A stretch of 64,000 nucleotides of DNA. Origin: Paraspadella gotoi (Eukaryota > Animalia > Chaetognatha). Every line of letters starts with the position of its first letter. The stretch's first letter is position 1. The notes under the pieces were generated by a model. It made no database searches and was not told the origin of the DNA. It worked only from the letters and a program-made list of their open reading frames with translations. This document shows positions 3,189 to 59,419 of this stretch, one piece after another. The stretch is taken from assembly GCA_051294375.1 (NCBI GenBank), contig CM119264.1:15525473-15589472 (forward strand), given 5' to 3'. The position numbers and the translations under genes were made by a program.

Positions 3189-3445
3189 TGTAGTCGGGCA
3201 TTGCCTATAAGCATGACACTTTCAGTTGTGACCCGGTGGCTCATTGAGTAAAGCCATCAGCTCATGACCACTTGGTACAATCCCAACCCGGTACCTACCC
3301 TGCGGGAAGCGTGAGGATGGCCGTAAGCCACCTTGGGGGCGTGGCAAACCCTCAAGCCTGGTTCCAAGCCCCGTTCCATGGCTGCAAGAGGGGGTTATAA
3401 AAGTTACGGACATTCATCTTCAGCCTATGTAGCGCCTTATCCACA
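3189..3445 (+). mobile_element. Solo LTR, family A (tRNA-like head plus degenerate twister)
   Basis: TGTAGTCGGG...TTATCCACA flanked by the 4-bp TSD TATC (3185-3188 and 3446-3449); internal deletions relative to other copies. Confidence 0.85.
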
Positions 3446-4430
3446 TATCATAGGAAGCTAAAAATTTACAGGGTAGTGATTCAAAACTTAGAAAATCCGT
3501 ATCACTTTCTTTTTTTTATTTTGTGATGCATCGTGTGCATTTAAAGAAAATAAATTAATTAAAGATACTTAACCAGACCTTGTTCTAACTATTAAAGCAA
3601 TGCGACAAGCACTGCTGCAAAAACCACTCCTGCCACAGCACCCAAAAGAATCACAGCTGCTTCATAAATGCTTCTGAAAGATTGAGCTACAGCTCGTAGA
3701 CAGTTTACCCTATGCCATTGATATTTTGGTTGAAAGGCATATGGTTCACCCACTTTAAAACGCCCTTCTTAGCACAGTTTAGGGGAATTAGATGTAGATA
3801 TTTTCAAGCCCAAAAATCATTCAGTCAAAAATTTAAATGTTGCTGCAGCTGAAATCTTTATTTTTTTTTAGCTGTATACAACAATGCCCTTGGTTACAGT
3901 CATGCATAATAACCCTAAGAGTATTGGCTCTTTAATCTTTATACATGTTAAGAAATGGAATCTGAGAACAATATAGAAGACTGCAGCAATAGATTTTTGC
4001 CCAGTAATGTAGTCGGGCATTGCCTTGGTTCACCCCGCCTAGAATCATGACACTTTCAGTTGTGACGCTCGAAAGAAAAGAAAAAACCGCATCCGCGCGA
4101 GGTAGGTACCGGGTTGGGATTGAACACGGTACTAGTGGTCATGAGCTGATGGCTTTACTCAATGAGCCACCGGGTCACAACTGAAAGTGTCATGATTCTA
4201 GGCGGGTGACCTAGGCAATGCCGGATTACATGCCCCCACGATTGTAACCCACCCTGCACTGCACTTCCAGTGGAGGGAGGGAGCAATCTTCAAGCGCAGA
4301 CCAAGGCGGAACACAGGAATGCAAGTTGGAATACGCTCGACGCAGGATGGGCTCACCAGTGTGGATAAGGCGCTACGTGGGCTGAAGATGACTGTCCGTA
4401 ACTTCTATAACCCCCTCTAGCAGCCATGGA

Positions 4431-4510
4431 ACGGGTCCCTGGGCTTGGAACCAGGCTTGAGGGTTTGCCATGCCCCCAAGGCGGCTTACGGCCGTCCTCA
4501 CGCTTCCCGC
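4431..4510 (-). ncRNA. Type-P5 twister ribozyme candidate (family A LTR)
   Basis: Minus strand: GCGGG-AA-GCGT-GA-GGA-CGGCCG-TAA-GCC-GC-[CTTGGGGG..CCCTCAAG]-CCTGG-T-TCC-AA-GC-CCAGG-GA-CCCGT. T1 is TCC/GGA. Predicted U|A cut between 4488 and 4487. Confidence 0.72.
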
Positions 4511-4518
4511 AGGGATAG

Positions 4519-4590
4519 GTACCGGGTTGGGATTGAACCCGGTACCTAGTGGTCATGAGCTGATGGCTTTACTCAATGAGCCACCGGGTC
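4519..4590 (-). promoter_or_regulatory. tRNA-derived internal Pol III promoter in family A LTR
   Basis: GACCCGG-TGGCTCATTGAG (A box)...CTCATGA...GGGTTCAATCCC (B box)...CCGGTAC; tRNA-length spacing. Confidence 0.75.
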
Positions 4591-5235
4591 ACAACTGAAA
4601 GTGTCATGATTCTAGGCGGTGGTGAACCAAGGCAATGCCCGACTACATTACTGAGGCAAAAATCTATTGCTGCAGTCTTCTATTATGTTCTCAGATTCCA
4701 TTTCTTTAACATGTATAAAGATTAAAGAGGCCAATACTCTTAGGGTTATTATGCATGACTGTAACCAAGGGCATTGTTGTATACAGCTAAAAAAAAATAA
4801 AGATTTCAGCTGCAGCAACATTTAAATTTTTGACTGAATGATTTTTGGGCTTGAAAATATCTACATCTTAATTCCCCTAAACTGTGCTAAGAAGGCGGTT
4901 TTAAAGTGGGTGAACTATGCCTTTCAACCAAATATACAATGGCATAGGGTAAACTGTCTACGAGCTGTAGCTCAATCTTTCAGAAGCATTTATGAAGCAG
5001 CTGTGATTCTTTGGGTGCTGTGGCAGGAGTGGTTTTTGCAGCAGTGCTTGTCGCATTGCTTTAATAGTTAGAACAAGGTCTGGTTAAGTATCTTTAATTA
5101 ATTTATTTTCTTAAATGCACACGATGCATCAAAAATAAAAAAAGAAAGTGATACGGATTTTCTAAGTTTTGAATCATACCCTGTAAATTTTTAGCTTCCT
5201 ATGATATGTGGATAAGGCGCTACATAGGCTGAAGA

Positions 5236-6950: not shown

Positions 6951-7243
6951 TGTAGTTGGCTCATTGCTTTAAGTTCAAAGCATTACACTTTCAGTTGTGA
7001 CCCGGTAGGTCATTGCGTTATACCATCACCTCATGACCATGATGTACCCAATCTCCAATGGTACCACCCGGCGGGAATCGTGAGGATGGCGGTAACCGCC
7101 TTGGGGGCTGGGAAACCCCAACCTAGTGGCAAGTCCAGGACGTTTCATTGTTCAATTGCTGCTGAGGGTCCACAGAAGAAACGGATACCAACTTTGCGTG
7201 GAATGGTCATTCTTGGCTGACCCCATGGTAGAAATCTACTATA
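6951..7243 (+). mobile_element. Diverged solo LTR related to family A
   Basis: TGTAGTTGGC...CACTTTCAGTTGTGACCCGG...GCGGGAATCGTGAGGATGGCGGTAACCGCCTTGGGGG is colinear with family A; 3' boundary approximate. Confidence 0.65.
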
Positions 7244-10216: not shown

Positions 10217-10441
10217 TGAACAGACAGTAATTATTGTTATGTGTTAATGACAGAACCGTTCAATATAAGCGTCCCTGAGCTTCAGATCAGGCTGTAACAC
10301 CATGTTACAGGCGGGTTAAGCGCCCTGTCCCTTAACTGCCAGACGACGCACCGGGCTAAAACCCCGGACCTTGGGGTTGGAGCGAATGACTTGCCTCTGC
10401 ACCATGGCGCTGATGAACGGTTGTGGATTTAGTCCACCATA
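10217..10441 (-). mobile_element. Family C element
   Basis: Colinear with 40869-41102; twister at 10269-10339 with compensatory T1 (CTG/CAG); TSD not clear. Confidence 0.8.
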
Positions 10442-23241: not shown

Positions 23242-23866
23242 TGTGGATAAGGCGCTACGTGGGCTGAAGATGACTGTCCGTAACTTCTATAACCCCCTCT
23301 AGCAGCCATGGAACAGGCCCTGGGCTTGGAACCAGACGAGGGTTTGCCATGCCCCCAAGGCGGCTTACGGCCGTCCTCACGCTTCCCGCAGGGTAGGTAC
23401 CGGGTTGGGATTGAACACGGTACCTAGTGGTCATGAGCTGATGGCTTTACTCAATGAGCCACCGGGTCACAACTGAAGTGTCATGATTCTAGGCGGGTGA
23501 ACCTAGGCAATGCCCGATTACATGCCCCCAGATTGTAACCCACCCTGCACTGCTTCCAGTGGAGGGAGGGAGCAATCTTCAGCGCAGACCAAGGGCCTGG
23601 AATCAGAAGGTTGGAATACGCTCGACAGGATGGGCTCACCAGTGTGGATAAGGCGCTACGTGGGCTGAAGATGACTGTCCGTAACTTCTATAACCCCTCT
23701 AGGCAGCCATGGAACGGGTCCCTGGGCTTGGAACCAGGCTTGAGGGTTTGCCATGCCCCAAGGCGGCTTACGGCCGTCCTCACGCTTCCCGCAGGGTAGG
23801 TACCGGGTTGGATTGAACCCGGTACCTAGTGGTCATGAGCTGATGGCTTTACTCAATGAGCCACCG
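23242..23866 (-). mobile_element. TRIM family A: complete 3' LTR (23242-23522), internal domain (23523-23642), 5' LTR truncated by the fold-back
   Basis: Two direct LTRs; PBS complement at 23632-23641; flank TTAC (= GTAA); same LTR-specific variants as the 4101-4647 copy; twister motif at 23714-23792. Confidence 0.88.
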
Positions 23867-26800
23867 GAGGACGGCCGTAAGCCGCCTTGGGGGCATGGCA
23901 AACCCTCGTCTGGTTCCAAGCCCAGGGACCTGTTCCATGGCTGCTAGAGGGGGTTATAGAAGTTACGGACAGTCATCTTCAGCCCACGTAGCGCCTTATC
24001 CACAGTAATAAAAAGTATTTTTCTTTCATCTGATGCTGCAGTAGATTACATTAAGCAATTTTATATTTTATAATAATATAATAATATAAAAATATAAAAA
24101 TATTATATTTTACACAGAGAGTCCCAACTACATCAGTTATTGATTTCATAAGTTCACAGAGATGGTACTTAACCAGAGTGGCTGATACAGTGTGTACTTG
24201 AGAAAAAAAAAGAAATTTTTACAGCATCTTAAAATTGCTTTTATTAATTAAGGTTAAAATAGGTCTTGTTAAACTGCGGCAGTTTAATGGCTATAGGATA
24301 GTAAAGATAAGATGTCCTCGTAAATATTTCTAAATAGAGTTTTTCATTTTCTTTCTTTAGAATTTTTCTTTTACAATTGTTACCTGCAGCATCCTTATAA
24401 ATGGCCCTAATCGACTTGCGCTTGAGCGCAGGGCTTAAAATAGTAGTTATACCTATTCTTAATAGCCTTTTTAATAATATAACATAGTGCTAGGGAACAT
24501 AAACTTAAACATATTTAGTAATGGTTTTAAGCTCGAAACCGGCGCAGAGCAAATTCGACCAATATTGCATTCTTTTTAGTAGCGCAGCGTATTGTAAAAA
24601 ATGAAAAAAATAAAACCTATATTAGAAAGAGAAAACGTCAGTGATTATTTTAGTATATTATAAAAAGACAATAACTTTTTGCCTATAAAATCTGGTGGTA
24701 AATACTATTCTAAATTTTGATTCACTACTCTGTAGATATGACATCATCAAGATCTTTGAAATTGTAATGTTTCATATCAATATTCGAATTTGTTTGTTTT
24801 ATTTACAAAACAATTTTTATTGAAAAATTACTACGAATTATAATTGTTTTAATTATATATCGCTCTTTATTTTAATTATATGTCGCTCTTTTTATTTATT
24901 TTTTTTTCATTTCTTCTTCTTCTGTTTCGTCTAAAAACGAGTTCAGCTCTGCAGCGGCTGTCCAGCGGTTGTCCAGCTTCTCTCTCTTGTTCTCTTTCTT
25001 TCTTTCTCTTATTCATACACGCATTTGTTCGTTTTAATGACTCATTGCGTCAATGAATGCCTATCATTGCGTCAATGAAATGGCCTATCATCGCGTCAAT
25101 GAATGACTATCATCGCGTCAATGAATGACTATCATCGCATCAATGAAATGACTATCATCCGCATCAATGAATGACTATCATCGCATCAATGAATGACTAT
25201 CATCGCATCAATGAATGACTATCATCGCATCAATGAATGACTATCATCGCATCAATGAATGACTATCATCGCATCAATGCAATGAATGATGCTATCATCG
25301 CATCAATGAATGACTATCATCGCATCAATGAATGACTATCATCGCATCAATGAATGACTATCATCGCATCAATGAATGACTATCATCGCATCAATGAATG
25401 ACTATCATCGCATCAATGAATGACTATCATCGCGCATCAATGAATGGACTATCATGCGCATCAATGAATGACTATCATCGCATCAATGAATGACTAATCA
25501 ATCGCATCAATGAATGACTATCATCGCATCAATGAATGACTATCATCGCATCAATGAATGACTATCATCGCATCAATGAATGACTATCATCGCATCAATG
25601 AAAATGAACTATCATCGCATCAATGAATGACTATCATCGCATCCAGATGAATTGACTATCATCGCATCAATGAATGACTATCATCATATCAGTGAATGAC
25701 TATCATCATATTATTGTATAACTATTATCACAACAGTAAATGTTTATAATTACATCAGTGAATGACTTTTATCACATCAATAATTGGTTATCATCCCATC
25801 AATAATTGGTTATCATCCCATCAATAATTGGTTATCATCATATCGATAATCAATTACTATTACATCAATAATCAATTATTATTATATCAATAATTTGTTT
25901 TTGCATCAATAATTTTAGCATTTTGACTCAGGTCAAATAATAATTTTTAATAAATAAAATTTTAAAAATTGTTGAAAACAATAATTTAAACTTATTATAA
26001 ATTATAATTATTATAATTCTCATTTTATTTATCAATTAAATTACAAAAAGCATTAAATAATTAAATTATTTTTTATTAGGGAATTTAAGACCACTGGCTC
26101 GGGAGAAAATCTTATTTTTTAAAAATTAAACAACATTAAAAAACGCACAGAATGACACCCTGACTTGTTACCTAATGTAGAAGAAAATTATTCCGAAAGA
26201 AGTCAATTATGAACAACATACCTTCAGTGAACATTAATTTGTAAAAAAAAATTAATTTTATGTTTTTTAATTTTTGCAGTAGGCTATATTTATATATAGT
26301 ACTATCCTTATAAAATCGAAAAATTTCAAAATAGGCTTTTCTTAAGATTTGCAGATTTGAATTCCTCGTCAAAAGTTGATAAAAGAAAATAATTCTTTTT
26401 TAAAAATTCTTTCATTAAGTGGGTTAAAAATTTAAAAAACTATATTTAATATATAAAAAGTTAATTTTCAGCTTAAAATACAGCTTTTTCTCATTTTTGA
26501 CCCACTTAATGAAGGAATTTTTCAAAAAGAGTTATATTTCTTTTTATCAACTTTTTATGACAAATCCAAATCTGCAAAAAAATCTTACTGTTTTGAAATT
26601 TTAACATTTATTGGTTTAGTACTAGTATAAATATGGCCTACTGCGTAAATTGTAAAATTTATTATAAATTTTTTTATACATAAATGTTCCTCACTTTTAA
26701 AATTTTAATTAAAGTTAAACTTAGAAATTTTACTACGCCTTAGTGGGTAGGAAAGTGTATGATTGAGCTTGACATAGTTTCGATGGATTCGTGCGTGTGG

Positions 26801-27816
26801 AAATGAGTTAAAATGGAAAAAACAAAAGTCACATTTACTTATTTTTACTTATATTTATTCATAATTATTATATCTATTTAAAATTTGATAGATGAATTGA
26901 AAAGTAAAGGAAAGTATGTGATTAAGCGGGATATAAATTTTTGATGGAAAAGAGTTTAAATTACAAAAACAAAAGACCCCTTTATTTAAATTTTTAAAAG
27001 TTTCTCTCTTTCTATTGATTGATTGATTAATTGACCAAATTATGCCAGTTGACCAAATTCTGTAAGTGACCAATTTCTGCAAGTGATTAAATTATGCCAG
27101 TTGATAAAATTATGCCAGTTGACCAAATTATGCAAGTTGACGAAATTAGGCAAGTTGGTATTGGTAATGATTGATAGATCAATTTATTTATAGATTTTTT
27201 TATAGATTTATTAAGAAGTCTGTTAATGTTATGATTTGTTATGTTACGATGAAATCGTGCGAGTGGAAATTAGTTTAAATAGAGAAAATATAAGTCACAT
27301 TTACTTGAATTTTTTTACTAATTTTAACCCGTAATTACTCTAATTATGCATAATTGGATGGATAGAATGAGATAAAATTTTGTGTTGGTAGGAAAGTGTG
27401 TTATTGAGCAGGATATAAAGTGTCAATGGAATCGAGGAATGGAAATGAGTTTGCATCAAAAAACCAAAGTCAAGTTGACTTGAAATTTTATTATTTATGC
27501 TTACTCATAAATGTTTTTATTAATTAATTAAATTTTAAAATTTTTAAAATCCCCTCGATAATCCCATTTCTATTGCCCTAAAATTAATTCATGCAACGTT
27601 TTACCGAAGTTGGTCAAGTAGTTTTATATGAAGCCTTCTGTACATATTTTGATTGGTTTGCGATCTTAATGATTATCAACAGTTATGGTAAAGATAGCCT
27701 ATGATCCATTGGACATAAGAAATGTTTGAGTAATAAGAGAGAACAAAAATGTTGGCCGTAATATATATGTATATATATATGTATTTGAATGAAACTTATT
27801 TTTTTCCCTCTTTCAG

Positions 27817-28008
27817 CCTGTGAATCGGAATCTCGCTCAAAGCCTTGGTCGCTGAAAGAATGGGATGCCCGTTCGGCCTTTTTGGATGCACAACAATCGT
27901 CTGAAGACATTTCGGCACCGTCAACCGCTGTCTTCCTGAACACTTTACGTGAAGAGAGTGTCGTAGCTGCTCTGCGAAAAATATTAGAGGTCATCGTTCA
28001 AAACTGGG
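27817..28008 (+). CDS. AAAS: AAAS/Aladin exon
   Basis: tttcag acceptor and G|GTAAT donor; ...WDARSAFLDAQQ...VIVQNW; phase-compatible with the next exon. Confidence 0.7.
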
Positions 28009-28231
28009 GTAATTTTTCAGGAAGTAAAAATGGAAAAGAGAGACATTTTGATAAACGTGTTCCAGTTAGGAAGAATTCAGGGTTAGTTTAAAAACGTTTC
28101 ATTTTCAATGATACAAGTTGAAATTTAAAATATCCCTCTATTACATTTTTCTAATTCAGTAATAAAAAATTTATTAAAAATATCAGATGGATTGGCTTTT
28201 TCGTTTGACCTGCAACTCTTCAGATGGGTTT

Positions 28232-29015
28232 CTTTTTATCGTCGCAATCGCTTTGCGTTTGCGACGATATTGTAACGCTTTTGCCCATAAGTGGCGTCGT
28301 CGTCGTTGGCGTTCCAAATTATAGATCGCCTTTTTTATGATTAAATTTAGGTATATGAAGCTGAAAATTTATATACAGCTTCTCATCATCGATGTGCTTT
28401 AAATTGAGTCTGGACAGTTATTAAATATGTTTTGTTTGTTTTATCAAAACAAACAAATTTTCTCTCTTTTATTTTCATATTTTTTTCTCTCTCTCTCTTC
28501 TCTTTTAATTACATGTCTCTCTCCCTCTCTCTTTTCCCTAGTCACTGATTCATAATCATAGGGGAAAAAAACGAGTCTGCAGCTGGCTCTGCAGGGGCTT
28601 ATTCTTTTTCTCTCTTTTCTCTTGCTGCTTCTGCTGCTGCCTTTTGAGTCTGCAGCTGGCTCTGCAGGGGCTCTTTCTTTTTCTCTCTTTTCTCCTGCTG
28701 CTTCTGCTGCTGCCTTTTGATTTCTTTCTTTTTTTCTGGGTGTCTCTGCTGCTGAAAATGATTTGGCTTCTTTCTTTCTCTGATTAATTTTTTCCCTCTA
28801 AAAACTTTTATTATCGCCATTTATTCCCAAATTTACATCCGAGATTTTCATGGATTTTTTTCGTGGATTATTTATTTTTTTTTTATTTTCTTTATTTTTT
28901 TCAAATTTGATTTTCTTTATTTTTTTCAAATTTGATTTTTTTAGTATCGAAATTTGTCATCAATCCAGATTTTTCTTATGCAATTGCGACGATCCTTATG
29001 CTTTTAAGATTTTTT
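28232..29015 (+). mobile_element. HINE/DINE-1-like (Helentron-derived) family 1, representative copy
   Basis: Subterminal inverted ATCGTCGCAA / TTGCGACGAT, ends in T-runs, CTG/CT-rich body. Other full or partial copies at ~2380-3137, 30556-30800, 31780-32245, 32452-34497, 42504-42930, 44204-45172, 58610-59230, 63845-64000, plus mirrors. Confidence 0.65.
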
Positions 29016-30020
29016 TTATGAAATTGGTACAACCATTATTAAAATTATCCAATATCCATTCATTTAAATTTTAATAAACAAGTTATCTTGCCCCTGATTT
29101 TGGACAGGCTTTGGTGGTTTAAGGCCTCAATCACTCTTACAAGATAATGCAAACTTTCAAGACTAGACTATATTATAATTAAAACCGATATAAAAGGGTG
29201 TAGAATGCATCAAATGAGCTCAGCTTTCTGAATCTATACTCCATTTTGGCCTAGTTTGAAGTTGATTTGAATGACCCTTTTTCTTAAGGGTCAAATATTG
29301 AAATTCGCCTCGATAGTTCTATTTGTATTCACATAAAGATCATTAATGCCAAATTTCAAATTTTTTGGTAACAAAAAACATGTACCTAATTTTATAATAT
29401 GAAGCCTTCTCAGTATAGGGGGTTTGTTGGTCTGCTTTTTTGTTTGAAAATTACTGCTACGCAATATATTTTTGTTTTACTTTATACTTTTCATGAATCA
29501 TATAATGGGTCATATTTTGAATCTTGTCCTAGGTCTGTCTAAATGATTTTTGGCTAAATTTTACTTTCGCCGATCGCGGTTTTGACGTCTTTTGAAAAAC
29601 TACTAAAAAATACTTATTTTTTAAAAAAATTTAAAAAAATATTACCTAATTACCCTAACCCTTTTAACCCTAACCAGTAACCACCCCTTGCCCTAAACGA
29701 CCCCTAAACCACTCTTAACCCTAACCCCTCCTTAACCCTGATTTTTTATAAGCTCTTATAATTATTTATCTTTACTATTATAACAATTTTGCATTAAATT
29801 AGCTAATAGATAATTTGGCATAATATTTAGCATAATTAGTTTATGCTAGATCGCGCCCTAAATTATGCTAAAAATATCTTTTCTGTGGAGTTTTATTCAG
29901 AGGCTATCACATTTGACAAGAATCTGTTTTTCGCAGCCACAATATTTTCAAAACAATAATTAATAATTTTTATTTTCAAATTTAAATTCACTTTTTAGTT
30001 CACTTTCGCGTTTTTCGTAG

Positions 30021-30193
30021 GTATTTCTGGATTGTTAGCGAGCTTTCGGTGGTCTACCTCCATATTCTCTAAACTTTATCCCCATCGCTCACCACCCTTT
30101 GATAATGTGATCACTCAGTTTTCGGCTTTCGGGGAAGATTGGAGCCAGACGAAAATCCGAGCTTTTGAATGGCATCCGCATACTCTGAAAGTG
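30021..30193 (+). CDS. AAAS: AAAS/Aladin exon
   Basis: LASFRWSTSIFSKLYPH...IRAFEWHPHTLKV resembles Aladin LCRWASSLHGSLFPH...RVFAWHPHTNKF; tag acceptor and gtgagt donor. Confidence 0.88.
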
Positions 30194-30283
30194 GTGAGTT
30201 TAAAAAATTTTTATTTATTGTACACATTAAAACAACACAAAAAATTCGATCTAGTATTGCGACGTTGGAAAAGGAGGTGATTC

Positions 30284-30397
30284 TATTGTCGGGCATTTCC
30301 TAAGTTCACCCCGCCTATAAGCATGACACTTTCAGTTGCGACCCGGTGGCTCATTGAGTAAAGCCATCAGCTCATGACCACGAGGTACTGGGTTCCG
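30284..30397 (+). mobile_element. 3'-truncated family A LTR (mirror at ~16787-16897 on minus)
   Basis: Matches the LTR start through the tRNA-like B box, then stops. Confidence 0.75.
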
Positions 30398-31896
30398 ATA
30401 ACCGTTAACCGTTATTAACGGTTAAAAATAATTTTAACCTAACCGTTAATATACCCCGTGTCCGTTCGCGAGTGACACCAAAAAAATCTTTACTGTACTT
30501 AAATATTTAATAAACATAATTCATAAGTATATCATTAGTTGGAGAACAACTTGACGTTTTTATCGTCGCAATCGCTTATACAGCTTCTCATCATCGATGT
30601 GCTTAAAATTGAGTCTGGACAGTTATTAAATATGTTTTGTTTACGTTTTATCAAAACAAACAAATTTTCTCTTATTTTTATATTTCTTTCTCTCTTTCTC
30701 TTTTCTCTTTTTATTACATGTCTTTCTCCCTCTCTCTTTTCCCTAGTCACTGATTCATAGACAAAGGGGAAAAAAATGAGTCTGCAGCTGGCTCTGCAGT
30801 AGAGCGTTCAAAGATAACAAAATATAAAATATTTAATTTCATTCATTATTGTTTTGATGGAATAAGGTTTGAAGAATTCGATGATGATAACCATTTTTTA
30901 GTATAGTTTCATCTTCCTTGTCGCCAGTGGCTATTTTTGAAGCATATAAGGTGCTATTAAAATGGCGCAACCATTGTAGAGTATGAGAAACTAAAATTAT
31001 CAAAATTTTATAAAAGTTATATCTAGCTTATATAATATGAAAATAAAGACCCATAACAATATTTTGGTAAGTTTATTTACAAATTTTATTAACAGTTTGT
31101 TAGCTATATTTATTAATAACTAGTAGTTAAAAATAGGCTAAAGTAAAAAAATAAATATTTTGAAATTTTAAAACCGGATTTTTGAATTCCTTGCAAAAAG
31201 TTGATATAAGAAAGTAAAATCTATTTTAACAAATTCTTTCATTAAGTTGGTTAAAAATATTAAAAACTATGATATTTGTTTAATTTTATAATTTTTGGCT
31301 TAAAATTATAATTTTTTTAAAATTTTGACTAACTTAATGACATAATTTTTTAATAAAAATTATATTTTCTTATATCAACTTTTTGCAAGGAATGCGAATC
31401 CGGGATAAAAATTTTTAAATTATTATTTTTTAACTTTAGCCTAATTTTTATTCATAATTATTAATAAATATAACTAACTTTTAATAAAACATAAAATTGA
31501 AAAATAAATTTACCAAAATATTTTTATAGGTCTTTATTTTTATATTTCAAAAGCTTATATAATATATAATTTTAAAAAAAAATAATTTGATTTATCATAA
31601 CTTATAATGTTTGCCCTATTTTATTAGCATTTTATATACATTAAAAATTGTCATTTCCGATAAGAAAGATGAAATTATACAAAAAAATGGTCATCACCAT
31701 TGAATTCTGCAGACCTTATTACAGTAAAATAATTATGAATATATTTTTTTTATTATATTGTTATATTTAAACGCTCTACTCTGCAGGGGCTTATTCTTTT
31801 TCTCTCTTTTCTCCTGCTGCTTCTGCCTTTTGATTTCTTTCTTTTTTTCTGGGTGCCTCTGCTGCTGCCACTGCTGATTCGTCTGAAACGATTTGG

Positions 31897-40230: not shown

Positions 40231-40616
40231 TGAAGAGACAGTAATAATTGTTATGAAATTGGTACAACCAATATAAAAATTATCCATTCATTTAATAAAT
40301 AAGCTATCTTGCCCCTAATAGTGACAAAAAAAAAACTGATATAAATAGGCATGAATCAAATAGACAATGTTTAATAATAACATGCATCGGCAAGTTCAGA
40401 GTCTTTGAGATTGTCCATGATATTGTCTCCAACAACAGAACCGTTCAATATAAGCAGTCCCTGAGCTTCGGATCAGGCTGTAACACGGTGTTTCAGGCGG
40501 GTAGAACTTTGGAACTTTAGAACTTTAGAACCCCGGACCTTTGGGTTGGGAGGCGAATGACTTGCCTCGGCACCAATGGCCACTGATGAACAGTTGGTGG
40601 ATTTTAGTCCACCATA
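40231..40616 (-). mobile_element. Family C element interrupted by a ~180-bp insertion
   Basis: Both termini present (TGAAGAGACAG and CCACCATA) with 4-bp TSD CAAT; part of the ribozyme core replaced by AGAACTTT repeats. Confidence 0.78.
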
Positions 40617-40868
40617 CAATTAATCTCGTGACTCGTTGGTTTTCCAGTCATGAACAAAATCTTTAGTTAAATAGATGGTAAAGAAATTCAAGATACAATG
40701 AATCTACACTAAGAGTTGCAGCCTAAACAACTGCAATAATATTGATTTATAAATTTGATTAGGAATATAAAAACATTTGTAAAAATGTAATAGAGAGACA
40801 TTTTGATAAACGCGTTCCAGTTAGGAAGAATTCAGGGTATAAAAACGTTTCATTTTCAAGGATACAAG

Positions 40869-41102
40869 TATGGTGGACTAAAATCCACCAACCGTTCATC
40901 AGCGGCCATTGGTGCTGGAGGCAAGTCATTCGCCTCCCAACCCAAAGGTCCGGGGTTCTAGCCCAGTGGTCGCCTAGCAGTTAAGAGGGACGGGGCGCTT
41001 AACCCGCCTGTAACATGGTGTTACAGCCTGATCCAAAGCTCAGGGACTGCTTATATTGAACGGTTCTGTCACTAACTCATAACAATGATCACTGTCTCTT
41101 CA
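40869..41102 (+). mobile_element. Solo LTR-like element, family C (tRNA-like head plus twister)
   Basis: TATGGTGG...TCTCTTCA with 4-bp TSD CAAG; the paralogous empty site GATACAAGTTGAAAT is at ~28110. A box at 40910, B box GGTTCTAGCC at 40954. Confidence 0.85.
40977..41050 (+). ncRNA. Type-P5 twister ribozyme candidate (family C)
   Basis: GCAGT-TAA-GAGG-GA-CGG-GGCGCT-TAA-CCC-GC-[CTGTAAC..GTTACAG]-CCTGA-T-CCA-AA-GC-TCAGG-G-ACTGC. Predicted cut at 41000|41001. This copy has a T1 mismatch that is paired in the other copies. Confidence 0.72.
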
Positions 41103-41232
41103 CAAGTTTAAATTTAAAAATGTCTCTCTATTACATTTTTTTCTAATTCAGTAATAGAAAATTCATAAAAAATATCAGATGGATTGGCTTTTTCGTTTGA
41201 CCTGCAACTCTTCAGATAGGTTTCTTTTATAT

Positions 41233-41974
41233 TATGGCAACAGCCGGGTTGCCTGTGATGCCCATTGGGATGGGGCACTCACTGTTGGCTTTGGGGGCTT
41301 CCGACCCTCAGTGACGCATCCAGTCACTGGCGCGGTTACCCTAGGACGGTCTCGCTTTGCCAACGCAGAGGGAAGTCGTTAGGACTGTGGATGGAACACT
41401 ACGCCTGGGATGGTGTGTTCCCCCTCTGAGCCAATGGATTTGGCTGAAGGATGACGGACGTGAGGCGGTGTGAATATACTGCCACAGGATCCCCGGGCCA
41501 AGACATCACTCAGGTTCCTCAAGCCTGAGAGGTGTCTGACAAGACTGTTACCAATAGTGGGAGAGAGAGAGCGCGAGTTGTGGGGCATACGGCGTTTGTC
41601 GTAGCGTACCCCAGGGGCATAGGCGTTTGTCGTAGCGTACCCGAAGTCGGCAGGGCATAGGCGTTTGTCGTAGCGTACCCTGAGAAGGTTGCGTGTTCGA
41701 ATGTAGGGCTCACCACTTATTGGCAACAGCCGGGTTGCCTGTAATGCCATTGGGATGGGGCATCTCACTGTTGGCTTTGGGGGCTTCCGACCCTCAGTGA
41801 CGGCATCCAGTCACTGGCGCGGTTACCCTGAGACGGTCTCGCTTTGCCAACGCAGAGGGAAGTCGTTAGGACTGTGGAGGAACACTACGCCTGGGATGGT
41901 GTGTTCCCCCTCTGAGCCAATGGATTTGGCTGAAGGAGATGACGGACGTGAGGCGGTGTGAATATACTGCCACA
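41233..41974 (-). mobile_element. Full-length TRIM family B (LTRs 41233-41486 and 41718-41974)
   Basis: Two ~255-bp direct repeats (minus strand TGTGGCAG...TGCCATA); 4-bp TSD ATAT (41229-41232 and 41975-41978); PBS TGGTGAGCCC after the 5' LTR; non-coding ~230-bp internal domain. Confidence 0.92.
41284..41364 (-). ncRNA. Type-P5 twister ribozyme candidate (family B; second copy 41770-41851)
   Basis: Minus strand: GTTGGC-AAA-GCGA-GA-CCG-TCCTAGGG-TAA-CCGC-GC-[CAGTGAC..GTCACTG]-AGGG-T-CGG-AA-GC-CCC-CAAA-GCCAAC. T1 is CGG/CCG and P5 is GTTGGC/GCCAAC. Predicted cut between 41338 and 41337. Confidence 0.8.
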
Positions 41975-43711
41975 ATATTATAATTAAAAACGCGATATAA
42001 AATGGCGTAGAATGCATCAATGCTTATAGTGAATACATTTCGGAATCGCCAGGAGCTCAGCTTTCTTGATTCTGTTACTCATTTTGGCCTATTTTGAATT
42101 TGATTTGAATGACCCTTTTTCTTAAGATTATAAATAGTTAAAAACGTCAATGCACCTGATGCTACTAAAAAATTTTAAAAAATTAAAAACGAAATTTAAC
42201 CTTTTTTGGCCCCCAGGGGTCCAGCCCCTCTCTTCTCAGGGGATGAATATTAAAATTCGCCTCGATAGTTCCATTTATATCGTTATTAGAACTCTTAAAT
42301 GTAAAATTTCATGAAATTCGATCAGGTAAGTTTGGTGGGAACAGATTCTGGTCTAAAAAAACCACAATCTCATTCTGTAGAATTTAGTTCAGAGATTTGG
42401 TCCGAACCAATTCTCGGTCAGAAAAACAAGGAGATTATGGATTGCCATTTTGACTTGTTACTTAAGGAGTCTTTATTTATTTACAATGTAATTGGTTACA
42501 TACTTTTTATCGTCTCGTAACGCTTTTGCGCATAAGTGGCGTAGTCGTCGGCGTTCCAACTTATCGATCGCCCTTTTGATAATTAAATTTGGGTGTGTGA
42601 AGCTGAAAATTTATATACATCTTCTCATCATCGAGGTCCTTGAAATTGGGTGAGGACAGTTATTAAATATGTTTTGTTTACGTTTTATCAAAACAAACAA
42701 ATTTCCTCTATTATTTTTATCTCTCTCTTTTCCCGAGGCTGATTCATCGGGAAAAAAAACGAGTCTGCAGCTGGCTCTGCAGGGGCTTTCTTTCTTTTTC
42801 TCTCTTTTCTCCTGCTGCTTTTGCCTTTTGATTTCTTTCTTTTTTTCTGGTTGCCTCTGCTGCTGCCGCTGCCGCTGCTGATTTGTCCGAAAACGATTTG
42901 GCTTCTCTCTTTCTCACTCTCTTTCTCACTATATATATATATTAGGCCGGAACAGGTTGAAAACTAGAAGTTCTTTCAAATAAATAATGATAAAGTGACT
43001 GTTAAAGAATATGAAAATAAAAATAATTTTAAAAAATTATCTTATTAATAAGCGCACGGAAGCATTTAAAGATTATCTTATTACTATATATAGTTAAAAA
43101 TTTTTTTTGAATTTGTCAATTTTTTTTAATGGATTCTGATAGAGCTTTAAAAGTTAGATAAAGGTTATTAATACAAATTTTAAAAATTTTTTTGTTTTAT
43201 TGATAAAAATTTTAAAAAATTAGAAAATTCAGCCAATGATGATGATGATGATGATGATGATTTTTTAACGTTTTTTCTGTTTTTAACCAATTTCTTGTCA
43301 AAATTTTAAAAAATTGTAGTACTAACTTTCATTTAACTTTTCAAGCTCTATAAGAATCCGTTCTTAAAAACTAACTTTTTTAAAAAAAATTTTTGTCATT
43401 TGTTATATATTAATAAATATTTAAAAGCTTCAGTGCAACAACCCAATGAACTAATTCAAAAAGTTGCATTGAAAATCGATTTAGTAATAGAAGGAAAAAA
43501 GGAATTTTTTTGAGAGAATTAAAAGTTATAAAAAGTGTTCAATTTTGGCCCGCCTTAATATATATATATTAAGCCAAGTTAATATTATAAATAACTTAGT
43601 CTTCAAGTATCAAATTCGATTTTTTTGTATCAAAGTTTATTATGGATCTAGATTTTTTTTATGCGATTTCGACGATCCTTATGCTTTTAAAATTTTTGTC
43701 TTATTATTGAG

Positions 43712-47133: not shown

Positions 47134-47370
47134 TATGGCATCAGCCGGGTTGCCTGTGATGCCCATTGTTGGCTTTGGGGGCTTCCGAACCTCAGTGACG
47201 CCTCCAGTCACTGGCGCGGTTACCCTAGGACGGTCTCGCTTTGCCAACGCAGAGGGAAGTCGTTAGGACTGTGGATGGAACATTACGCCTGGGATGGTGA
47301 GTTCCCCCTCTGAGCCAATGGATTTGGCTGAAGGATGGTGAACGTGAGACGGTGTGAATATACCGCAACA
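47134..47370 (-). mobile_element. Solo LTR, family B
   Basis: Colinear with 41233-41486; 4-bp TSD GCTG on both sides; twister motif at 47168-47248. Confidence 0.88.
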
Positions 47371-48081: not shown

Positions 48082-48479
48082 TTAAAAGCTTTCTCTTTCC
48101 GTAAAAAAAAAAAATCTTAAAGTATAAGGATCTCGCCAAGGTATAGTATCAAAGAAAATTAATGAAAAAGTACTATAATCTAATTTGCATATTGCAGTAA
48201 ATCTTAAAAAGTGAATATTCAAACAAAAAATATTTGAATCGATATGAAACAAAGAAAATGGATACACATTTCAACTTCCTCACTGCCTCACTAATGGAAC
48301 TTGATGATAACTAGATACATTGTTTGGTAGTTAAACCATAAACTGGCAAAATAAAGATAGAAATTGTTTTTTATTTTTGAAAGAAGATTATTATTGACTA
48401 CTTAATAGAAGTGATAATAGATGCGATGATAATTATTCACTGATATGATGATAATCGTTCATTGATGCTATGATAACTA

Positions 48480-48680
48480 TAGTAATTAATTGATTGATGT
48501 ATTTGATTGATTGATGTAATTGATTGATGTAATAGTAATTGATTAATGTAATAGTAATTGATTGATGTAATAGTAATTGATTGATGTAATAGTAATTTAT
48601 TGATGTAATAGTAATTTATTGATGTAATAGTAATTTATTGATGTAATAGTAATTTATTGATGTAATAGTAATTTATTGAT
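48480..48680. repeat. 19-bp minisatellite (TGATGTAATAGTAATTTAT)n
   Basis: Direct tandem units; related flanking units at ~21270-21400. Confidence 0.85.
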
Positions 48681-49409
48681 GCGATGATAACCAAAGGATT
48701 GATGCTATGATAACCAAATGATGGATGCCATGATAATCATTCAGTGATGCAATGATAGAGAGAGAGAAAGACAGAGCTGGACAGCTATTGGAAGGCCGCT
48801 GTACAGTCACTGCAGAGCATGAAATTTGAAGAAATAAAAAAAGGCAAAAAAATGTTACAATTGTTTACAATTGGAAATTGTTATAATTTTTTCCAATCAT
48901 AGGTTGTAAAAGATTTTATTTTCATTTGTATTAAAATTAAGATATAGCTTCTCCTTAAAAAGGTCTTTATTTCACATGTTTTTTATTGATTCAAAGATTT
49001 TTTTATGAATTTCATCTTTAATATTATTTACTGCAATATGTAAATTAGATTAAAGCATTTCTATATACTAATTTGGATATTATAATGAGTACAATAATCT
49101 CATTTGTATATTGTAGTAAATCATAATAAAGTAGAAATTCAAACAAAAAATACTTGAATCCAAATGTAATATGAAAATTTCAAAGCTATTTCAAGATGAG
49201 AAGCCATATCTAAATTTTTAACTTATGATTATTGCAGACTTTTATAAAACTTAATCGTAATTCATAATAAATTTTATTTAAAAAAAAAAGGAAGTCCAGG
49301 CCAAAACTATAAAAGCATAGTTTTTATATAACAATGTCGGATCTGCCTACGATAATTAAGCAGTAATCAGCTAATCAGATGATAAACCATAATATTTTTT
49401 TAAATTTTT

Positions 49410-49630
49410 TTTCCACTCGCATCATTTTTTCAACTCTCATAATTTTTTCAATTTGCATCATTTTTACAATTTGCATCATTTTTTCCACTCGCATCATTTC
49501 GTTAACTTGCATCTTTTTTTTAACTTGCATCTTTTTTTTAACTTGCATCTTTTTTTTAACTTGCATCTTTTTTTTAACTTGCATCTTTTTTTTAACTTGC
49601 ATCATTTTTTAAAATTGCATCATTTTTTTC
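49410..49630. repeat. 18-bp tandem repeat (AACTTGCATCTTTTTTTT)n inside a family 2 element
   Basis: Tandem units; explains the spurious MQVKKK and TCIFFL ORFs. Confidence 0.85.
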
Positions 49631-50710
49631 ACATTAATTAATTAATTAAAACATTTATAAGTAATAATTGGTAGTAATATATTAAAGATTAAAGTAAATG
49701 TGACTTATGTTTTTTCTATTTAAACTCATATCCATTGGCCCAATTCCGTAAAAACTTTATATCTAGCACACTTCACACACTTTCTTACCCGCACACAAAA
49801 TTTTATCTCAATCTATTAATTCGAGTAATTATGGGTTAAAATAAGTAAAAAGATTTTAGTAAATGTGACTCATATTTTTTTCTTTTAAACTCATTTCCAC
49901 TCGCACGATTCCATCGAAACTTTATATCCAACTTTCCTACCCACACAGAAAATTTCATTCCAATCCAACCACCCAATCACGAGTTATTTGAGCTTTTTGC
50001 TAAGGTGAGATGGACGGACATCATTTTTTTTCATAACTTATCATAATTCGATGTTCTGACATGATGTAAGTGAATGCCCGACAAGATTAAGGGGGCGGAC
50101 CGACAAAGTGAACTATAGAGTCGGGATCTGCTGAAAGCAGATCCGACGAAAAAAGCGTGACGCCGACGACAACGCCGACAACATCACAAAGAAGCCTGGC
50201 CTTCGCTTTATCTCGCCAAGATATAATGGTTTATTTCTATATTAACCTCATAGGGCGCGTTTCCTATCACCCTCTTCACTTCATTCCGTCTCCGAGCCAA
50301 ATTTCTGTCACGCTTAATTCCTCTGTGATCGCATTTTCACGCGTGGAAGCCTCTCTGGATGTACTTGAGGCTAACATCTTTAGAGGAGGTCTTTCTCTTT
50401 TTACATCGCCAACGTGACTTTTTTCTCGCTTCTTTTGTTGTTACAGATACGTATATATATTATATAGATTAATTGTCTCATGATTGTTAAAATACAGAGT
50501 CTAAAAAAATGCTCACGGCCCAATAACGTAACGACTACCTATTAATTCCGTAATCATTTGCAAAAGTCAAAACTAGTTATAAAAATTTGGAGCTCGGTAA
50601 CACGTTTTGCTCATGATTTTAATTAGGCTGTTAATATTTTGAATTTGTTTTTTAAGATCTTATCAAAGAATACATGTATAAATTTGTAGCTAAAAACTGT
50701 ATGAACTATA

Positions 50711-51679: not shown

Positions 51680-51895
51680 ATTATTGTTATGTGTTAGTGA
51701 CAGAACCGTTCAATGTAAGCAGAACCTGAGATTCGGATCAGGCTGTAACACCGAGTTACAGGCGGGTTAAGCACCCCGTCGCTCTTAACTGCTATTCGAA
51801 CACAGGGCTAGAATCCCAGACCTTTGGGTTGGGAGGCGATTGACTTGCCTCCTGCACCAATGGCCGCTGATGAACGGTTATTTTATGCCACCATA
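51680..51895 (-). mobile_element. Family C element, slightly 3'-truncated
   Basis: Colinear; twister at 51719-51792 with T1 CCG/CGG and P1 GGTGCT. Confidence 0.8.
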
Positions 51896-56414: not shown

Positions 56415-57051
56415 GTTTTAAGCAAAATATTCATTATACACTACTAACTAACTTTTTACCCTAAAAAAAATCTTAAAAATACGAAGATTTTTAAGGTCAC
56501 GTGACCGATATTGACCAATCACAGATATCGATTGGCTATTTTTTTAGAAATTGAAAAAAAGGGGTGTGATCCCGAATATAGATCCTCTTGATAAATAAGA
56601 GGTGAAAACAGTTGGAGACAACCTCTTTTGGAAGTATTTGTATGCATTAAATAATTTTATGCTGTTGAGAAATAATCTTTTTATTCAGTTTTAGGGAGGT
56701 CATATTACATATTAAAACTTATTTACTGGCCAATAAATATATTTGACAATGAAATTAATCGACTTTTCCAAACCGTGACAATTTTTTTTTCCATCATGGT
56801 AGAACCATATTTATGACTGAGAGATGGATACATTTATATTCATCCATTTCTCAGTCACTTAAGTGGGGTGTACTAAGTAATAACTTTTCTTGACAATTTC
56901 TTCGTAACTTCTTTCGAAATTATTTATTTTACTTTTCCTAAATAAAAGTAATGTTGATTGGCTCAGTGGTCGTCAGGAGCAAAAAGGTAAAGAGAGAAAG
57001 GAGAGCTGGTTTTAGAGAATGCATTGTACAATTGGGCCCTCTTTCCACCAG

Positions 57052-57312
57052 GTCTCAACCTTACGCGAGGATTTCGCCCAGAAGGAGGTAGTGAGTGTCG
57101 AACAGACAGTGGCTAACGCTTTTAATCTCCGTAACTACAAAGATGTCTTCATCAACCGCGTCGACGCTCGTGAAGTCGTCCTCGATCTTGTCGAAATTAG
57201 CTTCAAGGAACAGTACATTAGTCGTGCAGACATGTGGAATCTCAAAAAAATTCTTGTTGGAGGCTGTGTTTATCTACAGAAGAAGATAGATTTTTTCAAC
57301 GCCCGGATGCAG
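57052..57312 (+). CDS. DEPDC5: DEPDC5 exon
   Basis: VSVEQTVANAFNLRNYKDV...LDLVEISFKEQYISRADMW...CVY; cag/gtatt boundaries, phase 0. Confidence 0.92.
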
Positions 57313-57970
57313 GTATTTTTCCTAGTTTTGGCATATTAAAAAGTTCAGATTTTAATTAATAAATTATTGCCCGAGGCATATAAAGAATATGAATATAAAG
57401 AGCATGAAGAAACGATGGTCGGTGCTTTACCGAAAAGAAAAGCAACGTTACAATGTTCAATGATCCTGAAAACGCTGAAAAGATTGTTTATGAGTTAGTG
57501 ATAGGGTGTGCCAAATTTCTAAAGTTTTGAGCTCTTTTCCCGCTCTTTGAGCCGTAGGCCTCTCGAACTAATTGATCTCCATTCTCCAGGAATGCTGACT
57601 ATTGACTAATTTATTGACGGGAGAGGACAAGTTGAAACTTTTCCTCCAGTTTCGACTTCTGAAATGTATCATGCTCGACATTTGGGTGAATCTGCGATCT
57701 TATAAGTTGACCTCGGTCTAGAAAATAATTAAACCTTTTAATCTCTCTATATTGATATCTTCTCTCAAAGTTGAAGCTTTAGTAGGGATTAGTAGGAAGT
57801 CGCTATATCGAAAGAAGCCAGCGGTTTTTATTTCGCCAGACGGGCTTAAGCCCATCTTGGCGTGATTTTGGTTCGCCTCTGCTTTTTTGTGACCGTTGTC
57901 GTCATCGTGCTTCTTTACAATCGAAAATTGTAAAGTGTGTAACCATAGGAAGCTAAAAATTTAGTTATAG

Positions 57971-58248
57971 TATGGCAACAGCCGGGTTGCCTGTGATGCC
58001 CTTTGGGTTGGGGCATCTCGCTGTTAGCTTTGGGGGGCTTCCGACCCTCAGTGACGCATCCAGTCACTGGCGCGGTTTCCCTAGGACGGTCTCGCTTTGC
58101 CAACACAGAGGGAAGTTGTTAGGACTGGATGGAACACAATGCCTGGGATGGTGTGTTCCCCCTCTGAGCCAATTGTATTGGCTGAACGATCGTGGATCCC
58201 CGGGCCAAGACATCACTCAGGTTCCTCAAGCCTGAGAGGTGTCTGACA
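57971..58248 (-). mobile_element. Deleted family B TRIM (LTR plus part of internal domain)
   Basis: Matches the LTR, then jumps to the internal GGATCCCCGGGCC...GGTGTCTGAC segment; twister TAA mutated to AAA. Confidence 0.8.
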
Positions 58249-59419
58249 GGACAGGTTAAGATTGGGAATAATTTTAGGGGACGAAATAGAATAGACATGT
58301 AGTGAAATGTTTTATTTGTCAATGAATAAATATTCAAATGTATGAAAGTTCGATGATGAATCTTCAAGAAAGTTTTTTCCCGACAATAGGCTAGGCTGAG
58401 AGAAAGAGAGAGAGTGTGAAAGATAAATGAAATACTTCTTTTTCTTATCTTTCACTCTTTTTTTTACTTTTATTAAACCTCAAATCTTTATTTTTAATTT
58501 TTTTAATTTTACTAAATTATTTTTCAGTTCCGGAAACCTGAAATCTGAACATGGAAGACGACTTTAGGATTTTATAAAAATTTGTCTGGATGTCTGGCTA
58601 TTGCCCATTGAAGCAATTTTTCAATGTCTCCTTCTCTCTCTCTTTTCTCTTTTAATTATATGTAGCTCTCTCTCTCTTTTCCCCAGCCTCAGGCTCGGAA
58701 AAAAAAAACGAGTGCAGCTGGCTCTGCAGGGGCTTTTTCTCTCTTTTCTCCTGCTGCTTCTGCTGCTGCCTTTTGATTTCTTTTCTTTTTTTCTGGCTAC
58801 CTCTGTTGCTGCCGCTGCTGATTCGTCTCTCTCTCTCTGCGTTTTTATTTAAAAAAAAATGAATTAGGATATAACTCGTAAAATTAGGCATCGAATTTGT
58901 GCATTTTGCTATCGCAACATCGTGTTTTTATTTTGTTCTTTCTTTTCATCACTCTCTCTTTATTTTTATTTTTCTATCCTTTCTTTCCTATCTTATCCTT
59001 TCTTTCCTATCCTTTCCTTCTATCCTTTTCTTTCTATTCTTTCCTTTCTTTCTATTCTTTCCTTTCTTTCTATTCTTTCCTTTCTTTCCTATCCTTTATT
59101 TCCTATCCTTTCTTTCTATTCTTTCTTTTTATTTATTCTTTTCTTCTTTTTCATTGTGTTTATGAATTAATTTTCTTTTCTCAAATTTGATTTTAGTATC
59201 AAAATTTGTCATCAATCCAGATTTTTCTTATGGCAGTGATTTCTATACGGGTATTTTCAACAATGAAATTGAAACTTATATAAATATTATTTCTTTTTTC
59301 CCACTTTATTTAAAAAAACGGTTGGCTATAGTTATCTTCTTCTTAAAACATAGAACTCACTGGCAGAATTTCTATGCTTTCAAAATACGGTAAGACATAA
59401 TTTCTTTTACGTTAATCAT

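Follow-up and report, generated by a model that had tools for sequence, protein, structure and literature searches.

Short LTR elements with a predicted P5-permuted twister fold in an animal genome: candidate LTR retrozymes

The family B element and its relatives

The window, by which we mean the whole 64-kb stretch of DNA that was analysed, contains short LTR elements of three families, A, B and C (Table 1). The family B element comprises a 5' LTR, an internal part and a 3' LTR of 257, 231 and 254 nt, respectively, and its two LTRs are 96.5% identical over the 256 nt compared. Exons of an Aladin gene (Pfam PF25460) lie on the plus strand on both sides of the element, and the best named relatives of a close homologue of this Aladin-like gene are metazoan. 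From the position of these exons, the B element is read as an antisense insertion in an intron of an animal Aladin gene. Fragments of a reverse transcriptase, which we take to be Gypsy-like, occur at 59394-60998 of the window.

An earlier note on this DNA described families A and B as units of the form LTR-PBS-internal-G tract-LTR. The anatomy of both families and the coordinates of the B element agree with that description, but only one of the three B copies is a complete two-LTR unit. The PBS of A and B starts 1-2 nt past the LTR and resembles a tRNA-Trp PBS, the comparison being with PMC10886601 Fig. S2 rather than with the host tRNA. The complementarity of the B PBS extends into the tRNA T-arm, with 19/19 letters matching a phage tRNA, as against 0/200 shuffles. 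The PPT is a run of only 4-5 G.

Table 1. Features of the three families, in window coordinates
Feature	Coordinates	Strand	Remarks
B element	41233..41974	minus	742-bp non-autonomous LTR element, two LTRs of about 255 bp
TSD, 5' side of B element	41975..41978		ATAT
TSD, 3' side of B element	41229..41232		ATAT
B 5' LTR	41718..41974	minus	257 nt, starts TG
B 5' LTR, twister fold, P5 to P5'	41770..41851	minus	predicted cut between U41825 and A41824
B PBS	41683..41715	minus	tRNA-Trp-like
B internal repeats	41583..41680	minus	3 x 28-29 nt, each hairpin-capable
B G tract, weak PPT	41491..41494	minus	4 Gs, 4 nt upstream of 3' LTR
B 3' LTR	41233..41486	minus	254 nt, TG...TA
B A-box and B-box	41388..41433	minus	A-box 41433-41423, 0 mismatches; B-box 41398-41388, 3 mismatches; 36 nt apart
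B likeness to 5S rRNA internal control region	41378..41410	plus	27/30 letters, 2 small indels, by eye
B 3' LTR, twister fold	41284..41364	minus	predicted cut between U41338 and A41337
B solo LTR	47134..47370	minus	TSD GCTG; P4 mismatch
B fragment	57971..58252	minus	partial internal region and 5'-deleted LTR; cut-site U altered
A two-LTR element	23242..23867	minus	5' LTR cut by fold-back; PBS 23641-23632; 3' LTR 23522-23242
A, second assembly view of the insertion seen at 23242	4088..4647	minus	5' LTR complete
A solo LTR	3189..3445	plus	TSD TATC; decayed twister
A LTR, old and decayed	6951..7168	plus	far end not located
A LTR head	30284..30395	plus	truncated upstream of twister; mirror at 16794-16892
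C single unit	40869..41102	plus	TA...CA; TSD CAAG
C unit	40231..40616	minus	TSD CAAT; interrupted; twister 5' half lost
C unit	10217..10441	minus	no TSD; several defects
C unit	51680..51895	minus	3'-truncated; T2 mismatch

The family A element at 23242 has a 3' LTR of 281 nt and an internal part of 120 nt; its twister U residues lie at 23770 and 23367, 403 nt apart, and its A and B boxes are separated by 45 nt. The second view of this insertion has its twister U at 4488 and its PBS at 4358-4349. Family C is represented in the 64 kb by single units only. The twister layout of the unit at 40869 spans 40976-41051 and, in this copy, has a single T1 mismatch.

There are two fold-backs within the window, one pairing 3417-4066 with 4588-5235 and ending at an N gap, the other pairing 15503-23378 with 23867-31685. 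Both turns lie inside a family A element, and GTAA ends the 5' flank of one A view and starts the 3' flank of the other. Based on these two observations, the A copies at 4101 and 23242, previously listed as separate, most likely represent a single insertion that appears twice owing to a fold-back artefact. The LTR head at 30284 and its mirror at 16794 are most likely another single insertion seen twice in the same way. The copy counts of family A are inflated through the assembly artefact. The large inverted repeats were also considered as real biology; this possibility was rejected and they were read as fold-back artefact.

All three families had been credited with 4-bp TSDs. Such a TSD (TATC, ATAT, GCTG, CAAG or CAAT) was found in five of the nine copies checked as single units, but GTAA is obtained only by joining the two assembly views and the C copy at 10217 has none. 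The remaining copies without a confirmed TSD are B57971 and C51680, which are truncated, and A6951, whose far end was not located. The view that the families share no obvious primary sequence did not hold: 36 of 66 columns are invariant between the A and C cores, and A and B have 10 nt of PBS in common, with only three matches in the window at ≤1 mismatch.

We compared the region 40700-42300, which covers B and C elements, with contigs from sequencing runs. Run X1 contributed 1803 contigs that covered all 30 bins of the region, non-coding flanks included. X1 is probably DNA; it may be the window's own source and is therefore not counted as independent support. At precisely 40869, 28 X1 contigs switch from the C unit to differing flanking sequences, and single contigs span the B and C elements as empty sites would. 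At the mismatched T1 position of C40869, 78,090 of the 81,581 depth in X1 has a letter that pairs, and the letter of this copy is in the minority. Four small contigs of run X2, which bears another organism label, contained B- and C-like pieces; no such pieces were found in runs X3 and X4.

The predicted twister fold

Both B LTRs and the family A LTRs have the layout P5-P2'-GA-NNN-P1-UAA-P2-GC-P3-P4/L4-P5'. The fold in the B 3' LTR comprises a P5 of 6 bp, a P2 of 3 bp plus a C.A mismatch, a P3 of 7 bp and a P4 of 3 bp, together with pseudoknots T1 (3 bp) and T2 (2 bp); P1 is an 8-nt palindrome at 41346-41339. The corresponding P1 of the B 5' LTR (41833-41826) is two letters off as compared with the other three B copies. 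Both twister motifs of A and of B are on the same strand as the PBS. The parts of the fold are those named for the twister in the available text of PMC8501958, the catalytic G and the A that follows the cut site among them.

To search for this layout, we used a descriptor composed after the sequences had been seen and specifying GA, T1', P1, UAA, P2, GC, P3, P4, loop 4 and a strict T1. It matched five times in the window, i.e., in both B LTRs and in three views of A LTRs. By contrast, 200 block-shuffled windows yielded two matches (0.01 per window), and 20,000 shuffles of each LTR yielded none. As an outside test, viral contigs were scanned using the A/C letters. Thirteen of the 16 loci obtained were submitted to Rfam with four metagenome loci, and six of these 17 were type-P5 twisters above gathering. 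The descriptor recovered five of the six Rfam-confirmed phage twisters and no non-twister locus. The twister layout in the LTRs of A and B is not a chance occurrence. The descriptor passed two of the four B LTRs and none of the four C copies; the layout attributed earlier to the intact LTRs of every family was recovered in A and B, and no C copy in the window has it intact.

Twelve core letters (GA, UAA, GC, U, AA and GC) are conserved across A, B and C. The T1 pairs differ in all three families (GGA/UCC in A, CCG/CGG in B and CGG/CCG in C), and P3, P4 and P5 vary as well, pairing being retained throughout; this three-family covariation was obtained by parsing rather than with a pair-counting tool, and MAFFT could not structurally align B with A and C. 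Between A and C, 95.3% of 64 cells were paired and 5 of 16 pairs had changed on both sides, as compared to 14-52% paired in slid controls, a result obtained from four sequences only and with the structure derived from the same sequences.

The Rfam twister-model check proposed in the earlier note was unfavourable, all scores being below gathering. The Twister-P5 model aligned end to end with A LTRs at 17.6 and 17.3 bits (gathering 37.6), the twister-P1 model gave partial matches to both B LTRs at about 16 bits (16.2 at best; gathering 67.2), and a small-window scan of family C gave no match. No hammerhead was found in the Rfam scans of A, B and C, and a scan of the whole window at E ≤ 1 returned nothing relevant and no hammerhead. 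Two home-made covariance models, R1 (from A and C) and R2 (from phage P5 twisters), both missed the B LTRs. On A and C, R2 matched only the P4/L4 part; this model is partly circular in that the phage set was chosen using A-like letters.

Comparison with other twisters also revealed departures. P2 is imperfect in all three families, with the C.A mismatch in B and a bulge or mismatch in A and C, versus a perfect P2 in 111 of 116 phage P5 twisters and a 3-bp P2 in 66 of them. A search for B-type T1 letters among 144 prokaryotic and viral loci gave one poor match and no credible twister, and an exact-pattern search for the B core had 0 matches in viral and in metagenome contigs. The A/C core matched four times in metagenome contigs, and none of these was a twister or a relative. 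According to nested folding without pseudoknot terms, the unconstrained monomer lies ∼8-13 kcal/mol below the twister-compatible monomer. An intramolecular P1 of at least 2 bp with a perfect P2, by which a type-P5 twister is recognized, was not found, nor did any of A, B and C reach Rfam gathering for a twister. Overall, the sequence comparisons support the prediction that the A and B LTRs hold a P5-permuted twister fold.

P1 palindromes, LTR heads and a possible cycle

P1 is a palindrome of 6-8 nt in A, B and C, and its central tetramer is different in each. A palindromic tetramer is expected by chance in ∼1/16 per family, or ∼2e-4 for three families if these are independent. A and C are related, yet both central letters of the P1 tetramer have changed between them. 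P1 alone forms no hairpin; its self-duplex was calculated at −10.7 (A), −11.0 (B) and −8.3 (C) kcal/mol. The P1 of a monomer amounts to 1 bp (A, C) or 2 bp (B) and reaches 6-8 bp only as a pair. Relative to two monomers, a strand-swapped, twister-compatible pair gained 16.3 (A), 13.4 (B) and 11.7 (C) kcal/mol. Among the phage matches to the descriptor that were listed, 116 were distinct, from 97 of 164 loci, and P1 was a hairpin of 14-39 nt in 115 of them; the T1 letters were fixed in both the long-P1 and the short-P1 scan. The latter, performed on 23 phage loci, gave one poor match and no credible short-P1 P5 twister.

Since a normal hairpin would need a longer P1 than this palindrome, cutting may depend on pairing, as in the double hammerhead. 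According to the available text of PMC7229834, an axolotl hammerhead with a one-bp helix and a palindromic tetraloop cuts efficiently only as a dimer. P1-P1 pairing in an LTR-to-LTR transcript of the present elements is nested. Its probability in whole-transcript ensembles was 0.013 (A) and 0.0 (B), and the P1 of the B 5' LTR, with its two deviating letters, pairs with the 3' P1 at only −4.8 kcal/mol.

The LTRs had also been described as having a tRNA-like A/B-box head. We tested A-box and B-box patterns on the LTR heads against 1000 shuffles each. The pattern was matched by 4/1000 shuffles for the A 5' LTR, 15/1000 for the A 3' LTR and 23-35/1000 for C. The putative boxes are thus above chance in the A 5' LTR and modestly so in the A 3' LTR and C, but not in B, for which 124-125/1000 shuffles matched and whose 5' LTR has no pair of boxes. 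A and two of the three C copies have their boxes 45 nt apart. No tRNA was called by ARAGORN or Rfam, and comparison of the heads with two phage tRNAs (9/200 shuffles for A, 24-59/200 for C and 111-170/200 for B) was not clearly significant. Judged from these patterns, the case for a tRNA-type Pol III head is fair in A, plausible in C and unsupported in B.

One stretch of B, which runs antisense to the twister and the PBS, resembles the internal control region of 5S rRNA given in PMC6962460; Rfam did not confirm this likeness. Pattern scans for a tRNA-Gly or 5S origin of the heads were unproductive. The lack of T runs was rejected as evidence of Pol III transcription, as 37-69% of shuffles also lack them. 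The predicted circles are 59% and 65% paired, with z about −1.9; self-pairing of >70% is quoted for animal retrozymes in the available text of PMC4918200.

Our preferred reading, which we hold tentatively and rate as slightly short of evenly balanced, is that these short non-autonomous LTR retrotransposons are LTR retrozymes and that the two twisters of one LTR-to-LTR transcript cooperate in cutting. Transcription would start upstream of the 5' LTR twister and extend into the 3' LTR; in A and C the tRNA-like Pol III head is its probable promoter, and for B host read-through would also do. The two palindromic P1s would then pair, and the 3' half of the first twister would fold with the 5' half of the second, giving an ordinary type-P1 twister with the whole unit as its P5 loop; the outer halves would form a second active site. 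Cutting at both sites between U and A would release a unit without terminal repeat. The sizes proposed earlier for this unit, 487 nt for B and 403 nt for A, match the spacings of the predicted cut sites.

By analogy with plant retrozymes, a host ligase would circularize the unit, and the circle, with one short P1 left, would resist re-cutting. Solo LTRs in host introns would likewise be weak cutters because they have only one short P1, as in the circle. Finally, a Gypsy-type element acting in trans would reverse-transcribe the circle from a tRNA-Trp primer, and full units or single LTRs would be inserted by integrase with 4-bp TSDs. The circle model for plant retrozymes, as given in the available text of PMC4918200, also yields single LTRs directly, with 4-bp TSDs.

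Within the same retrozyme cycle, each twister could cut alone, using a P1 of 1-2 bp closed by a tetraloop, with the palindrome incidental. Such a P1 can be drawn with 1 bp in A and C and 2 bp in B, P5 and P3 are available to hold the fold, and twisters without P1 are described as still cutting, inefficiently, in the available text of PMC8501958. In all five cores tested, however, closing the short P1 is energetically unfavourable; chance is also an unlikely source of three different palindromic tetramers, and the 23 phage loci offered no credible precedent for a short-P1 P5 twister. We consider cutting by single twisters unlikely. It is also conceivable that the twister cuts while the template is an uncut, terminally redundant Pol III transcript, as in an ordinary TRIM, so that cutting limits or processes the RNA. 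A transcript starting ∼50 nt into the 5' LTR and running through the 3' LTR would have ample redundancy for strand transfer, and such transcripts of Cassandra and Helenus allow normal strand transfer according to the available text of PMC10886601. Moreover, the element ends are LTR termini rather than cut sites and the predicted circles are only modestly structured. However, the circle route is what has been published for plants with this layout, and LTR-terminal ends and single LTRs with TSDs are expected from it as well; a catalytic core would, besides, not be kept in three diverged families unless the element benefited from it. We judge an uncut template to be decidedly improbable.

Loss of cutting was considered as well, the structure being either a twister relic or a non-catalytic dimerization or packaging structure in a Helenus-like TRIM. 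Palindromes serve as dimerization signals of retroelement RNA as well. The sub-threshold Rfam scores, the imperfect P2, the unusual T1 letters in B and C and the failure of the descriptor on all four C copies and on two of four B LTRs would be consistent with a structure that no longer cuts. This reading nevertheless appears rather improbable: the helices have turned over, but the single-stranded catalytic letters persist, as do both pseudoknots, and the common variants of the B and C cores in run X1, among the rows listed, sit in the P3 loop, apart from one position at which the window copy has the minority letter. A coincidental resemblance within GC-rich repeats would be helped by the post hoc descriptor and by the failure of the covariance models on B, but is scarcely tenable and already largely refuted by the shuffles of LTRs and windows and by the recovery of Rfam-confirmed phage twisters. 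A Penelope-type or RTE-type element was rejected, since these elements end in LTR termini rather than at cut sites and have 4-bp TSDs and a PBS.

Our preferred reading of paired twisters in an LTR retrozyme can be taken further. It is possible, if on the whole doubtful, that the elements contain an obligate, dimer-dependent 'double twister' that senses unit length and belongs to a set of interchangeable ribozyme modules in a wider, so far unrecognized class of Pol III-driven, Gypsy-mobilized animal LTR retrozymes. Under such an arrangement, only two-LTR transcripts would be cut, the circle and intronic solo LTRs would be spared, and the other module would be the type III hammerhead of Synergus Helenus-2.

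Relation to known elements

The analogy with plant LTR retrozymes drawn in the earlier note is supported. As described in the available text of Cervera, Urbina and de la Peña 2016 (PMC4918200), these are non-coding and have two LTRs, each with a self-cleaving motif (predicted in the present case), a PBS, a PPT and a 4-bp TSD. Solo LTRs, high GC content, a unit RNA without terminal repeat and an inferred Gypsy helper are further common traits. A and B carry a motif in both LTRs in the sense of the PBS, but not the type III hammerhead of the plant elements: they have a predicted twister, an animal host and a palindromic P1. The window elements are also smaller (LTR of 234-289 nt, unit of 403-487 nt), their PBS is tRNA-Trp-like rather than of the tRNA-Met type, and their circles are inferred.

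A and B likewise conform to TRIMs in having two short LTRs around a non-coding part, a TSD in the 4-6 bp range, a PBS and a PPT. Helenus, Ajax and Cassandra ('TRIMp3'; Kojima 2024, PMC10886601) are, as far as the available text goes, similarly small TRIMs with, in animals, a 4-bp TSD and a Gypsy-like PBS, which in animal Helenus includes tRNA-Trp; Helenus/TRIMp3 LTRs have tRNA-like A/B boxes, for which there are candidates in families A and C. The tRNA part is usually in the 3' half of the Helenus LTRs examined and is followed by a T run, whereas the LTRs in the window have the head in the 5' half, then the twister, and no T run. A word search of the main text of PMC10886601 did not find 'twister' and found ribozymes only in a reference title. 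The 10-mer of the A/B PBS was likewise absent from a word search of the supplement, and no relative was seen by eye in the parts of it examined.

By eye, the LTRs of Helenus-2_SyJa and Helenus-2_SyUm from Synergus, in the same supplement, have a type III hammerhead behind the tRNA head; Helenus-2_SyJa is listed there with a tRNA-Trp PBS. Synergus Helenus-2 thus appears to have the same layout with another ribozyme, unremarked in the text, which supports the design. These LTRs show that sequences of ribozyme-bearing animal TRIMs have already been deposited.

The predicted folds and the type-P5 twister (RF02684) have the same order of parts, core letters and T1 and T2 pseudoknots, and A aligns end to end with the model. 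They differ in having a palindrome instead of a hairpin as P1, an imperfect P2, a P3 and a closing P5, and a T1 that is flipped in B and C. The Perere-3 T-variant twisters of Schistosoma mansoni (Liu et al. 2021, PMC8501958) are also tied to an animal retrotransposon. According to the available text, however, Perere-3 is non-LTR and autonomous, and its single 5'-terminal type-P1 ribozyme sets the boundary of the element; the twister of the window elements is internal to the LTRs and doubled. The type I hammerheads of amphibian non-LTR retrozymes (Cervera and de la Peña 2020, PMC7229834) have a comparable minimal helix and palindromic tetraloop and, in the available text, cut efficiently as a pair, the unit RNA being circularized by RtcB in vitro. 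Unlike the window elements, these retrozymes use a hammerhead and form tandem repeats without LTR, PBS or PPT.

In the available texts of PMC7229834, PMC7761336 and bioRxiv 2026.07.22.740005, LTR retrozymes have type III hammerheads and occur primarily in plants, and animal retrozymes are without LTR, PBS and PPT. Twisters are linked to Perere non-LTR elements in those of PMC9695139 and PMC8501958; further background on retrozymes and twisters is provided in parts of PMC6765202, PMC10085705, PMC11722881 and bioRxiv 2022.07.19.500677. No twister in an LTR was found in the open full-text literature; subscription papers, Roth et al. 2014 and Repbase reports may bear on novelty. A comparable design was found described only in plants, with a different ribozyme. 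The earlier label of a 'new system' is too strong given that the parts are known, but the combination of ribozyme and LTR is new: on sequence grounds, it would work like an LTR retrozyme with a twister fold.

The reviews and the 2026 preprint cited here split retrozymes between plant LTR elements with type III hammerheads and animal non-LTR repeats with type I hammerheads, and twisters are linked to one non-LTR family. If the present reading is true, an animal LTR element with twisters breaks both divisions, and the ribozyme would be an exchangeable part. Twister ribozymes would also gain a second defined role, and TRIMp3 elements and retrozymes would be linked. A twister that naturally depends on pairing would represent a new arrangement for catalysis. 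As this fold is missed by the Rfam models, more such elements may be hidden in genomes.

Head and primer site of family B

In the LTRs of family B, one of three short LTR-element families with a predicted type-P5 twister fold, the 3' LTR of the element at 41233-41974 contains a stretch that by eye resembles the 5S rRNA internal control region, and the corresponding stretch of the other B LTRs does likewise. This stretch could be either an eroded tRNA head or a 5S-type promoter serving transcription of the other strand. Primer-binding sites (PBS) are customarily 18 nt long, and the complementarity of the B primer site exceeds that length. This long site was perhaps copied from its primer.

Features of the window
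Feature	Position	Strand	Basis or remark
5S rRNA internal control region likeness	41378-41410	+	by eye; antisense to twister and PBS
B primer site	41683-41715	-	complementary to ~33 nt of tRNA 3' end, T-arm included
Exons of Aladin gene and of DEPDC5/Iml1 gene	27789-50417 and 57016-57339		Pfam, for two of the Aladin exons and for DEPDC5/Iml1
Broken reverse transcriptase and RNase H-like pieces	59394-61001 and 11451-12052		PF00078; RNase H-like by eye
Minisatellites, periods 22, 19, 18, 16 nt	21300-22215, 25036-25900, 48478-48705, 49370-49685, 52838-54166		
Fold-back duplications (n=2)	3417-5235; 15503-31685		turning points of both within one family A insertion

Ribozyme motifs of phages and of Helenus-2 LTRs

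Type-P5 phage twisters were numerous in the viral contigs, frequently with several on one contig, and helix P2 was 3 bp long in 66 of the 116 among the matches listed. In Helenus-2_SyJa-LTR and Helenus-2_SyUm-LTR, from DataS1 of PMC10886601, all parts of a type III hammerhead can be made out by eye behind a tRNA-like head, and its loops are complementary; the text of that paper does not remark on it.

Genes, repeats and fold-backs

Pfam confirmed PF25460 for two Aladin exons and identified PF12257 and PF23013 in those of DEPDC5/Iml1. The reverse transcriptase and RNase H-like pieces derive from a Gypsy-like element; the RNase H-like piece had no Pfam match, and no matching PBS was found near these pieces. 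The predicted twister cut site coincided with the turn in neither of the two fold-backs, which likely originated by amplification or as long-read chimeras.

Family C and a possible further family

Among the twister layouts oriented in sense to the Aladin gene, that of the C unit at 40869-41102 alone is complete, and its mismatch in the pseudoknot T1 is a minority variant (one case). The remaining four copies within Aladin introns are antisense or truncated. One contig of X1, a probable DNA run, returns from 41081 to 40868, possibly representing a tandem or two-LTR C unit. A contig of X2, a run labelled as a different organism, has in common with B 34 nt around the PBS and LTR end and diverges on both sides; its sequence may represent an additional family.
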